In this document: positions 49,501 to 52,500 of the stretch, piece after piece
How the letters are laid out: the number at the start of each line of letters is the position of its first letter
Position numbering within the stretch: the first letter of the stretch is position 1
DNA from: Escherichia coli
GTDB lineage: Bacteria > Pseudomonadota > Gammaproteobacteria > Enterobacterales > Enterobacteriaceae
Reading direction: 5' to 3' (one strand)
DNA length: 64,000 nt
Assembly (NCBI RefSeq): GCF_009931435.1
Contig: NZ_CP043414.1
Made by a program: the position numbers

Positions 49501-52500
49501 CAACAGACGGTGATTATCACGGGTCGTGGTTGTCATCGGGATATTCTTGAACTGGCGGATACGGTAAGTGAATTACGCCCCGTCAAACATGCGTTTGATG
49601 CCGGTGTTAAGGCGCAAATCGGGATTGATTATTAAGTGAAAGCACCTCAAAAGTTCGCCTCTTGAGGTGCTTTAATCATAATTATATTCAAGCGGCAATA
49701 GCAAAACTCAGAATCCGTTTAATCTCATTCAAATGTCCCGGATATGCTTCATGATTCTCAGCGTCAACATCTTCAATAAATAATATCAGTTCAGTAATTA
49801 ACGCATTGGCATCTTCATAACTGATTCCGCTTAACTCTGGCGAAGTTTCAGTACCGTAGTTAATCGTCAGATTGTTCATCACCGTGAGGATAAGGATAAA
49901 ATATTTATGACAAACCTTGCATGTGGTTTTGTTGCCCAGAGTATTATACAGCATATCAAGTAATGCCAGTATTCTACGGTTTTGTACATCGTTCATAAAA
50001 AGCCCCTCCTATAACATTATTCCGCTGGCAATAAGTAATTTCGCCAGCCCCTCAGACGCCTTTAACCCACTAATGACCTGTGCGCGTAATATTTCATTTA
50101 ATCTTTTTTGTTCAGCTGCCGTGCGTGTTTTATTAGTGTATAAACCTTTTAGATAATCACCCTTATCTATAAAGGCATTTAAAGCTTCAATCGCGGGCAT
50201 TGCAGCAGCCGATGCCTGTAGTCTGGTTTCATTCACATTGATTACTGAACTTAGAAACTCCTTCCTGTTTTTCAGAGTGTTAAACTCTGTATTCTTAGAG
50301 TTTTTAGATACCGCATTATAATAAAGCATATTATTATGTACATTCGCAAAGGTATAATTTTCAATCTTATCGCCTTTTGTATAAATATCATTACGCAAAA
50401 CAGTCATGTTTTTTATAAGTCTTACCCAATTTTTATCCGCCGTTTTACCTATTTTCCCGGCATTGACCTTTATTATATATAACTCATTGAAATAACTTAC
50501 TAAATCTTTAACCGCCGCTGCCGATTCAGCTAAATCTTTGCTATGTGAAACATCAAGTAGTGTTTGCGCGTTGTTTGCGTGATCCAGAGCCTGTTTAAGT
50601 AATGTCACTTGCTGACTTTCTGTAGTTTTTATGTCTTCAGTCAAGAGCTCTACATAAGCACTCATGCTATTAATGACTTCCATTGAAGCCAGTAGTTTCT
50701 CTTTTTCGAATGGGACTAATTGTACTTTATCTGTTTTTTCTTCAGGGGGCCTGCATAATTTCCCACCCTGACCATCGTTCGCAACATCAATGGTATAATC
50801 AGGTCGCAATGCACAATCCGGATTAGTCGCATAAAAATTAACAAGAAAGTTTTCACGAGAAGCATAGTATTGTTTAAAGAAACTTGCATTCGCCGCAACC
50901 GCCTTGTTACCCGCAGTAATAACAGTTTCAGCTTGTTCATTCTTCAATGCTTCGGTTGCACAACCTGAAAGCATTAACAGCGATAGAAATAATCCACTAT
51001 ATCTAATCATAACCCACCTCTTGACGTTGAGTTTATCTCAGATAATTAAATAGTAATGTGGCTATTCCCTGGCATTATTCATAAGCAAGTATGAAATTAA
51101 ATTAAAATACTGCGACTATTTATCATGCTTCAAATGAAGAAAAGGCCCCGCAGGGCCTTTATTTAATACTTAACTTAAATTAACCGTTATTATTACGTCC
51201 ACCAGAACGACGACCGCCGCTGACCTGGCTGTGACGTTTCACCGCACGACGAATTTGATTCGCCTTCATACGACGACGGTCTTTTTCTACAGCAACTTTA
51301 GAGCTGGTTTCTGGCGGTAGTTCCACCAGCTCACGCAGATAGTTAGTCTGGGCAAGATCCAGCTCAGTCCAGCCACCGCGTGGCAGACCTTTCGGCAGTG
51401 GGATATCACCGTAACGCACGCGGATCAGACGGCTCACCTGCACACCAACAGCTTCCCAAAGACGACGAACTTCACGGTTACGGCCTTCGGTCAGAGTAAC
51501 GTTGTACCACTGGTTGATCCCTTCGCCGCCGCTGAACTTAATGGTTTTAAAGGCTGCCGGACCATCTTCCAGCTGCACGCCACGACTCAAATCACGCAGT
51601 TTCGCGTCGTCAACCTGACCAAATACACGCACGGCATATTCACGTTCAACTTCACGGCTTGGATGCATTAAACGGTTTGCCAGTTCACCATCGGTGGTGA
51701 ACAGCAGCAGACCACAGGTGTTAACGTCCAGACGACCTACGGCAATCCAGCGTGCGCCACGCAGCTTTGGCAGACGGTCAAATACCGTTGGACGCCCTTC
51801 CGGATCGTTACGGGTACACAACTCACCTTCCGGTTTGTAATAGGCCAGAACGCGACAAATTTGTTCAGCGGACTCACGTACCGAAATCAGGTGACCATCG
51901 ATACGGATTTTCAATCCAGGGGTAATTTCAACACGATCGCCGAGTTTAGCAATTTTGCCATCAACACTCACACGACCGGCTTCAATAATAGATTCGATTT
52001 CACGGCGAGAACCGTGGCCGGCACGCGCCAGCACTTTCTGTAGCTTTTCGCTCATAGAGCTTCCTTTTGGTGTCGCCTTCCCAGGCGTCGAACAGGAGAA
52101 TCAATGGCGCAGTAGAGCGCCATTTTAAGGCCGCGTAGTATACAGAGTTAAGCACTTATAAAAAAGGCTTCACATCACCTACGCCTTCACGCAATACGAC
52201 TGGCGTATCATCGGTGAGATCAATAACCGTTGTCGGTTTCTGCCCGAGATAGCCGCCGTGAATAATCAAATCCACCTGTTTTTCCAGACGGTCTTTAATT
52301 TCTTCCGGATCGGATTCGGTAAATTCACTGCCTGGCAGCATTAGCGAAGTGGAAAGCATCGGTTCGCCCAATGCTTCAAGCAACGCCTGCGCAATTGGGT
52401 TAGAAGGCACACGCATACCGATGGTTTTGCGTTTTTCCTGCAACAGACGGCGTGGCACTTCCTTCGTCCCCTTCAGGATGAAAGTGTAGTTACCCGGCGT

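Follow-up and report, generated by a model that had tools for sequence, protein, structure and literature searches.

Chromosomal integration hot spots between core genes are a general concept from pan-genome studies, and a closely related described arrangement for the locus considered here is that of Escherichia coli K-12 MG1655, where trpH (rnm), yciO, yciQ and rluB (b1266-b1269; the yciVOQ operon) follow one another. There yciQ, 1,896 bp in length, encodes a 631-aa DUF2207 protein that matches PF09972 and PF20990 (DUF2207 N- and C-domain), with PADLOC and NCBIfam yielding no match for it. Its GC content is 47%, against 52% for the flanking genes. Close homologues are confined to Escherichia (94-100% identical) and a few Klebsiella (53-56%), and the next one, from Serratia, is 38% identical and at another locus. 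When the K-12 junctions were read by eye, no integrase, transposase or flanking repeats were seen around the gene. yciQ serves as a neutral integration locus for strain engineering (PMC11943725), and a pan-genome study lists it among 'extended-core' candidate loci, i.e. near-core genes with variable recovery (PMC12595684).

The window, by which is meant the whole 64-kb stretch of E. coli contig NZ_CP043414.1 that was analyzed, has flanking genes in common with K-12 and a much shorter interval between two of them:

51180-52055, minus strand: rluB coding sequence, 23S rRNA pseudouridine-2605 synthase, 291 aa (from the ORF list; Pfam S4 and PseudoU_synth_2; NCBIfam RluB equivalog, 630 bits)
52156-52776, minus strand: yciO coding sequence, Sua5/YciO/YrdC family, 206 aa (from the ORF list; Pfam PF01300; TIGR00057, 266 bits)

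By these coordinates the spacer is exactly 100 bp (52056-52155), where a sequence-only reading of the window had given about 100 bp, and the K-12 order yciO, yciQ, rluB that it gave is right. Also borne out is the absence of yciQ: tblastn with YciQ against the 64-kb window gave no match (best E = 1.1), and no DUF2207/YciQ homologue was found encoded in it. The K-12 alignment that had been called for (blastn) has homology ending at 52089 and resuming at 52156 with the yciO stop codon, which is the same in both and forms the left boundary of the indel. A location of yciQ elsewhere in K-12, or adjacency of yciO and rluB there, had been named as fatal to that reading; neither is the case, as yciQ sits at the site. 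That the spacer is free of ORFs is true in substance. Two mechanical ORFs cross it, one of 51 aa (52000-52155, minus strand) and one of 57 aa (51955-52128, plus strand), neither credible and each rejected as mostly overlapping the rluB 5' end; because of 1-4-nt indels between genera, no reading frame in the spacer is conserved.

Several elements can be discerned in and around the spacer, listed here in the order in which they precede rluB, from the start codon outward:

52060-52064, minus strand: rluB Shine-Dalgarno sequence GGAAG, from the sequence and from invariant columns in the alignment of short-spacer genera
52072-52089, minus strand: invariant leader element GACGCCUGGGAAGGCGAC, the last block common to K-12, at whose outer end (52089) the K-12 alignment ends
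52090-52155, minus strand: 66 bp peculiar to the short (yciQ-less) allele, from blastn against K-12, with orthologous outgroup sequence and present in 1,441 E. coli genomes
52103-52124, minus strand: hairpin AAUGGCGC-UCUACU-GCGCCAUU, 8 bp with a 6-nt loop, from per-sequence folds, with an A-run on one side and a weak U-run on the other
52129-52142, minus strand: -10-like hexamer TATACT (52137-52142) and then GC-rich ACGCGGCC (52129-52136), 13 nt after the yciO stop codon

The hairpin that had been pointed out from the sequence, ATGGCGC-AGTAGA-GCGCCAT, is real (52104-52123, plus strand) and is seen in both MFE and centroid folds.

In place of the 66 bp K-12 has, by blastn, a 2,099-bp segment comprising yciQ and its flanks (L001 5191-7289), made up of a 27-bp yciO-yciQ gap, the 1,896 bp of yciQ and 176 of the 210 bp that separate yciQ from rluB. 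The two are identical over the 34 nt that precede the rluB start codon, invariant hairpin and ribosome-binding site included; beyond that K-12 has a long rluB leader that contains an TAGTATGTTGCGCC motif of its own and a hairpin of 11-12 bp, both of which the window lacks. This bears on one simple account of the difference, a recent deletion of yciQ in this strain or lineage, e.g. by illegitimate recombination between short repeats. The gene does decay elsewhere: strain LR-28 has a truncated copy with a 204-bp internal deletion, in O157:H7 strains only 83% of yciQ is covered, and a genuine deletion in Escherichia sp. E1V33 has left 420 bp that retain both yciQ ends and the long leader. A scarred long allele of such a type is, however, not what the window has. 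No yciQ coding fragments were found at its junction by tblastn, and with respect to the long leader (TAGTATGTTGCGCC plus the CAGTGAGTCAGA...TCTGACTCACTG hairpin), which is observed in K-12, CFT073, and the two Escherichia loci L007 and L008, nothing in the K-12 segment matches 52090-52155. With no fragment of yciQ and no piece of the K-12 long leader in the spacer, with the 66 bp absent from the K-12 region and orthologous to spacers of other genera, and with the same junction in 1,441 genomes, recent deletion is a very improbable origin and one that is already effectively refuted.

The breadth of occurrence within the species is also pertinent. A survey of yciQ had been proposed, and over 5,426 complete E. 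coli genomes the gene is present in 3,977 (~73%) and missing from 1,449 (27%), the yciQ-less condition thus being common; the window-type junction is found in 1,441 of those 1,449. One common short allele accounts for 1,423 of the 1,441, for example in 55989, O103:H2 and O111:H8, strains that we take to be of phylogroup B1. These three (55989 being NC_011748.1) have the same 100-bp spacer, TATACT, hairpin stem, GNRA hairpin and ribosome-binding site as the window, and in their RefSeq annotation yciO and rluB are neighbors. The window's own version is rare (7 genomes at >=99% identity) and differs from the common one at 3/77 positions, two of them within the loop of the hairpin and the third in the stretch that separates the hairpin from the yciO stop codon. 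Because 1,441 complete genomes have the identical junction as contiguous sequence, it is neither chance nor artefact. A collapse or mis-join that removed yciQ in assembly, or some artefact of how the window was taken, has no evidence in its favor; complete genomes that come from many laboratories agree with the junction base for base in colinear order, N96 matching at 99.5% over 2.8 kb and 55989 being likewise colinear, and such an error is barely conceivable. Since the 100-bp spacer is both common in E. coli (27%) and shared with other genera, the absence of yciQ is no anomaly and not a notable loss in this genome.

Sharing with other genera extends over the whole spacer. Among 77 informative species loci across Enterobacteriaceae, 34 have a spacer of 96-105 bp that can be aligned to that of the window over its full length, with longer yciO-rluB spacers in the other 43. 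Had the 66 bp failed to align to the spacers of outgroups, this would have counted against a common origin; they do align, being orthologous to the spacer of Escherichia albertii, Citrobacter, Enterobacter, Lelliottia, Buttiauxella, Franconibacter and Silvania. Each of these can be aligned from end to end, and they share TATACT, GACGCCUGnGAAGGCGAC and GGAAG without variation and a hairpin in the corresponding position, though the stem and loop sequences of the variable hairpin differ from those of the window. The short allele was delimited by a length of 96-105 bp; by TATACT 13 nt after the yciO stop followed by (A/G)(C/T)GCGGCC; by a hairpin of ~6-11 bp before GACGCC; and by the GACGCCUGnGAAGGCGAC hairpin and GGAAG before ATG. 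The window has all four, i.e. the length, TATACT with its GC-rich block, the variable hairpin, and the invariant hairpin with GGAAG. To Citrobacter sp. FP75 its spacer is 92.6% identical, as against 82-86% for yciO and rluB, and judged by such identity the spacer is more conserved than the genes on either side.

Because the 66 bp are orthologous to spacers of other genera, the window in all likelihood carries an inherited or re-imported short yciO-rluB allele of related Enterobacteriaceae, and not the product of a yciQ deletion. yciQ is an accessory gene at the yciO-rluB junction that is simply not part of the short allele, and the short state would have been either inherited or brought back by homologous recombination via the highly conserved yciO and rluB flanks. 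By parsimony K-12 would then have the derived state, and the 100-bp spacer would be the state common to E. albertii, Citrobacter, Enterobacter and others; given that 43/77 species loci have longer spacers, family-wide ancestry of the short form is an argument from parsimony and no proof.

Two non-coli Escherichia representatives have yciQ (L008) or a remnant of it (L007), and therefore yciQ may predate the diversification of E. coli; if so, E. coli could have regained the short allele by import instead of having kept it throughout. A more specific version, plausible though somewhat less than probable, is that the lineage once had the yciQ allele and that this was replaced by recombination with a yciQ-less donor, the crossovers being in or beyond yciO and rluB. 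In keeping with it, besides the non-coli Escherichia loci, a mosaic is seen among the haplotypes: over its first ~150 bp the window's rluB agrees with yciQ-bearing K-12 and CFT073, while the 3' end of its yciO has private variants, and in the B1-type short allele the pattern is reversed. Identity to K-12 is 93-96% over the stretch from btuR through the trp operon, compared with ~98% to the left, and the window's trpED is matched at >=95% identity in only 18/5,422 genomes. Long-term retention of an old polymorphism, however, carries the same expectations with these data, and a donor was not found, with the window's yciO, trpH and rluB being no closer to any of 80 species loci than to E. coli. 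Replacement of this type concerns history only, and is compatible with an ancestral-type allele, the window having undergone no deletion either way.

A description of the neighborhood of rluB as recombination-prone, also made in the sequence-only reading, is fair because the yciO-rluB junction holds many unrelated cargo genes and because the window is mosaic and divergent there; both flanks are indel-polymorphic, SNPs are mosaic and identity to K-12 drops. The second indel lies on the other side of rluB:

49636-51179, minus strand: low-GC (35-39%) islet between btuR/cobO and rluB with 2 ORFs, of 102 aa and of 333 aa (lipoprotein-like); the second indel flanking rluB

This islet is absent from K-12, and searches of Pfam, NCBIfam and PADLOC with its two proteins gave no match. 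Within E. coli yciQ is present in 3,977/5,426 genomes, as noted, and the btuR-rluB island matches 1,237; all four combinations of yciQ and islet exist, as exemplified by K-12, O111:H8, APEC O2-211 and this window, with O111:H8 lacking the islet that the window has. The SNP patterns of rluB and yciO are likewise mosaic between haplotypes.

At species level, the 43/77 loci with longer spacers have inserts of 0.2 kb to >6 kb that represent many unrelated protein families. The cargo includes DUF2207, LysR with fumarase-like genes and a symporter, GNAT, AraC with DUF2000, PAAR, Hcp, LysE, a hydrolase, HNH, DUF4136 and DUF4225, and in some genera an integrase and an IS3 transposase; in many cases the insert terminates with the conserved long leader of rluB. 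In having unrelated cargo in different genera at one core-gene junction the locus resembles such hot spots, with the difference that in the window the site is empty.

What the spacer does is a separate issue. Its 100 bp would constitute a compact regulatory module, with a TATACT promoter core, a structure-conserved hairpin, and a GNRA hairpin just ahead of the rluB ribosome-binding site; where yciQ is present, a longer, cargo-linked leader would precede the same invariant hairpin instead. TATACT is invariant in 31/31 aligned short-form sequences, and a related motif, TAGTATGTGCGGCC, is found in long-form loci 100-140 nt upstream of the invariant hairpin, after the cargo. From this conservation TATACT and the GC-rich block are inferred to be the promoter core of rluB, with no usable -35 element found for it. 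The promoter proposed by a scan, TTAACT-18-TAAAAT (minus strand), was set aside; its hexamers are unconserved in Enterobacter-type spacers, whereas TATACT is invariant.

The GACGCCUGGGAAGGCGAC element has a 5-bp stem, CGCCU/AGGCG (52074-52087), and a GNRA tetraloop that is GGGA in the window and GUGA elsewhere; the stem is identical in 31/31 short-form and 34/34 long-form sequences, all five pairs being unchanged in the short forms. The variable hairpin, by contrast with this uniformity, is at the same position in 30/31 folded short-form sequences with at least 5 different stem sequences. RNAalifold, applied to the short spacers as aligned by MAFFT, found the invariant hairpin only, with the variable stems misaligned, and folds were consequently made per sequence. 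The variable hairpin at 52103-52124 is a putative yciO terminator and/or a candidate attenuator or 5' stem-loop in the leader of rluB, and as such would end trpH-yciO transcripts and/or form that leader structure. For an intrinsic terminator its stem and loop are suitable (8 bp with 5 G-C and a 6-nt loop, where >=5 GC-rich bp and 3-8 nt are sought), but its tail, UGAUUCUCC, falls short of U at >=5/8 positions after the stem. Enterobacter orthologues have UUUUU, a clear terminator-like U-tract after the hairpin, compared with a weak one in Escherichia and Citrobacter. A scan of the window for canonical terminators did not flag the 52103-52124 hairpin, and the fold of the 131-nt region is not significantly more stable than those of shuffles (z = -1.7).

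In Rfam 15 at E <= 1, window positions 49500-54000 gave only Trp_leader plus chance matches, with none in the spacer, and K-12 region 4200-7400 gave nothing credible. A 3'-end-mapping preprint makes no mention of rluB, the available part of a Cappable-seq supplement has no entries for the locus, and a literature search for rluB together with yciO returned nothing relevant. A tentative proposal, on balance doubtful, is that in all sampled Enterobacteriaceae an uncatalogued cis-regulatory leader, which has two old alternative forms, lies ahead of rluB as a candidate attenuator or RluB autoregulatory site. Its parts would be a promoter-like TA...T and GC-rich motif, a terminator-like hairpin in which compensatory changes keep pairing, and the strictly invariant GNRA-capped hairpin by the ribosome-binding site. 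The short form, of ~75 nt, would be that of the window, and the long form, of ~140-170 nt as in K-12, would accompany whatever cargo is at the yciO-rluB junction; attenuation, or binding by RluB, an S4-domain protein, to regulate its own synthesis, could be the role of the leader.

For E. coli the case cautions against a K-12-centered reading: yciQ is accessory and dispensable, and to be without it is normal for much of the species. For the family, recognition of the yciO-rluB junction as a cross-genus cargo site is modestly useful, and the region upstream of rluB, where constraint is much stronger than in the adjacent coding sequence, is thereby a candidate regulatory leader.

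The identities of rluB and yciO are secure, through NCBIfam, TIGR00057 and Pfam matches, and the layout of the region in window positions is as follows.

Beyond the islet, plus strand: btuR/cobO, then yciK
49636-51179, minus-strand ORFs: low-GC (35-39%) two-ORF islet between btuR/cobO and rluB
51180-52055, minus strand: rluB (NCBIfam RluB equivalog, 630 bits)
52056-52155: yciO-rluB spacer, 100 bp
52156-52776, minus strand: yciO (TIGR00057, 266 bits, and Pfam PF01300)
52773-53654, minus strand: trpH/rnm

The gap between yciO and rluB, put at about 100 bp by the sequence-only reading, is exactly 100 bp, and the hairpin that it was said to contain is located at 52104-52123, is present in both MFE and centroid folds, and extends to 8 bp (52103-52124). 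No ORF had been seen in the spacer, and the only reading frames that extend across it are two mechanical ORFs (51 and 57 aa); these are dismissed, as they mainly overlap the rluB 5′ end and small inter-genus indels disrupt any spacer frame. The order given for K-12 MG1655, yciO, yciQ, rluB, is correct, and the product of its 1,896-bp yciQ has both DUF2207 domains, N-terminal and C-terminal. The window is homologous to K-12 throughout rluB and as far as 34 nt 5′ of the start codon, ending at 52089, and again from precisely the yciO stop codon (52156), the unalignable segments in between being 66 bp in the window versus 2,099 bp in K-12. A tblastn search with YciQ yielded no match across the whole 64-kb window, in agreement with the K-12 comparison that yciQ is, as claimed, absent. 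Elsewhere in the window, a 7.9-kb segment (18357-26243) has no K-12 counterpart, K-12 having there about 660 bp with ycjD; its genes, all on the minus strand, are for a TetR regulator, membrane-fusion protein, AcrB-type RND pump, outer-membrane efflux protein and MFS transporter.

Absence of yciQ is an ordinary finding: the gene is accessory, and E. coli is commonly polymorphic for having or lacking it. Among 5,426 complete genomes of the species, 3,977 have it; a 77-bp probe over the window-specific segment has one full-length match apiece in 1,441, the 401-bp junction is contiguous in 1,441 genomes too, and RefSeq annotation of short-junction genomes has yciO adjoining rluB. A single allele, differing from that of the window at 3 of 77 positions, accounts for 1,423 of the 1,441, carriers including 55989 and O103:H2, O111:H8, O114:H49 and O39:H21 strains (55989 and the O103:H2 and O111:H8 STEC lineages presumably being phylogroup B1). 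The window's own short allele is found in only 7 genomes. Three short-spacer matches, and a few to flanking genes, are on records labelled as plasmids, which may be mislabelled replicons or plasmids with chromosomal segments. In the literature yciQ features among ‘extended-core’ candidate loci in a pan-genome study (PMC12595684) and serves strain engineers as an integration locus (PMC11943725), the only phenotype found reported being improved membrane-protein production on overexpression (PMC3120638).

Whether such a junction is a deletion scar or an uninterrupted allele is a matter on which other genera are informative. A YciO scan with one genome per GTDB species gave 80 Enterobacteriaceae loci, 77 of them informative, and in 34 of these 77 the distance from yciO stop to rluB start is 96-105 bp. 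These short spacers, from E. albertii, many Citrobacter and Enterobacter species, Lelliottia, Buttiauxella, Dryocola, Franconibacter and Silvania confinis, can be aligned full-length to that of the window. Against Citrobacter sp. FP75, the identity of the window spacer is 92.6%, and that of yciO and rluB just 82-86%. Full-length alignment to other genera, with spacer identity above gene identity, indicates that the 66 ‘extra’ bases are old, constrained sequence. A deletion scar is rejected for the window junction, both because of this match to the spacers of other genera and because genuine yciQ deletions differ: Escherichia sp. E1V33 retains a 420-bp remnant with both yciQ ends and a long K-12-type leader, in E. 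coli LR-28 an internal stretch of 204 bp is missing toward the yciQ 3′ end and the gene is annotated as a pseudogene, and O157:H7 genomes (H107-H109) have yciQ copies with only ~83% coverage. Decay of yciQ is recurrent, occurring in E1V33, LR-28 and O157:H7. The most economical reading makes yciQ a cargo gene that entered between yciO and rluB, and gives the window, which carries the state common to related genera, the uninterrupted allele. Its lineage may have retained the short allele continuously or re-imported it by homologous recombination. Among non-coli Escherichia, two representatives (L008 and E1V33) have yciQ or its remnant and E. albertii is without it.

The yciO|rluB junction is a cross-genus cargo site, with inserts of 0.2 kb to >6 kb in 43 of the 77 informative loci. 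Cargo includes LysR- or AraC-regulated metabolic genes, examples being fumarase-like genes and a Na/sulfate-type symporter beside a LysR regulator, GNAT with LysR, and AraC with DUF2000; mobility is represented by a tyrosine integrase and an IS3 transposase, and other cargo by PAAR proteins and Hcp (type VI-related), LysE, alpha/beta hydrolase, HNH, DUF2207, DUF4136 and DUF4225. YciQ has a narrow, patchy distribution. Escherichia homologues are 94-100% identical (E. coli yciQ alleles diverge by up to ~6%), a few from Klebsiella (oxytoca complex), likewise at yciO|rluB, are 53-56% identical, and the next, at an unrelated locus in Serratia fonticola, is at 38%, with ~30% thereafter. The GC content of yciQ is 47% versus 52% in flanking genes. 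In Klebsiella spallanzanii (L082) and a JGI metagenome contig (L087), the DUF2207 protein at the yciO|rluB site is just 53-56% identical to E. coli YciQ, against 93-96% for YciO and RluB; this protein is either an orthologue that evolves very fast or a cassette that was exchanged independently.

The suspicion that the rluB neighbourhood is recombination-prone is borne out by the diverse yciO|rluB cargo, a polymorphic second flank, mosaic SNPs and a drop in identity to K-12. On the second flank, the islet is absent from K-12, and the 1,237 E. coli genomes that match it have alleles of 80-99.8% identity. Its 333-aa ORF has a lipoprotein-like N-terminus (…LLMLSGC…), the second ORF is of 102 aa, and neither protein has a match in Pfam, NCBIfam or PADLOC. 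The islet assorts independently of yciQ, all four presence/absence combinations being found (K-12, O111:H8, APEC O2-211 and the window), and rluB and yciO SNP patterns are mosaic across six haplotypes. Identity to K-12 falls from ~98% at 43-49 kb to 93-96% from btuR through the trp operon, with 92-96% given for the divergent haplotype block as a whole (~49000-62000). Of 5,422 E. coli genomes, only 18 reach 95% identity to trpE-trpD of the window. The rnb-pdeR segment differs in this respect: every genome that matches it does so at 95% or more, and 129 at 99% or more. No closer match to the block was found in E. albertii or two other Escherichia species loci. The B1-type rluB of O111:H8 (L003 2284-3156) is one codon shorter, at 873 nt, and 8 sites in its first ~50 bp are unlike K-12, CFT073 and the window, so that the two short-spacer haplotypes carry different rluB 5′ ends.

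In the rluB sense, the short spacer has the yciO stop codon, 13 nt, TATACT (unvarying in 31/31 distinct short-form sequences), directly thereafter a GC-rich ACGCGGCC, and then a hairpin, at the same position in 30 of 31 folded sequences, whose stem varies by genus (for example AUGGCGC/GCGCCAU, GCAGGGC/GCCCUGU, AUGGGGC/GCCCCAU, UCGGGGCG/CGCCCCGA and UAGCGG/CCGCUA). In Enterobacter a U-run follows and the hairpin is intrinsic-terminator-like; Escherichia and Citrobacter have only a weak U-tract, and a terminator scan did not flag the window's spacer hairpin. From its sequence, the hairpin may have two roles, as the end point of trpH-yciO transcripts and as a 5′ stem-loop or attenuator in the rluB leader. 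On its 3′ side GACGCCUG(G/U)GAAGGCGAC, a 5-bp stem with GNRA loop, is constant in the 31 short-form and 34 long-form sequences examined, and GGAAG and the rluB ATG close the spacer. Where cargo is present, a TATACT-related motif, TAGTATGTGCGGCC, is 3′ of it and 100-140 nt upstream of the invariant GNRA hairpin; the longer leader that follows the motif ends in a terminator-like hairpin with its U-run, UUGUUUUU, ahead of the GNRA element. The terminator-like hairpin has compensatory double changes at 6 of 7 base pairs. A common leader of ~140-170 nt is present in the K-12 yciQ-rluB spacer (L001 5157-5366) and in long-form loci of many genera (alignment A3). Because the TATACT/TAGTATGTGCGGCC motif accompanies rluB, not yciO, it is probably the rluB promoter core. 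In Cedecea sulfonylureivorans (L052) and an Enterobacter MAG (L079), whose inserts measure 4.8 and 5.2 kb, TATACT and hairpin, the left module of the short form, are straight after yciO and a long leader with a second motif copy is beside rluB, which looks as if a short-form locus had received cargo and long leader together, 3′ of the hairpin. Rfam has no family matching the rluB leader region in its short or K-12 form, and the long leader may act in attenuation or autoregulation. Of more interest than the absence of yciQ, though peripheral to it, are the strongly constrained, uncatalogued rluB leader with its two alternative forms and the cargo site shared across genera.
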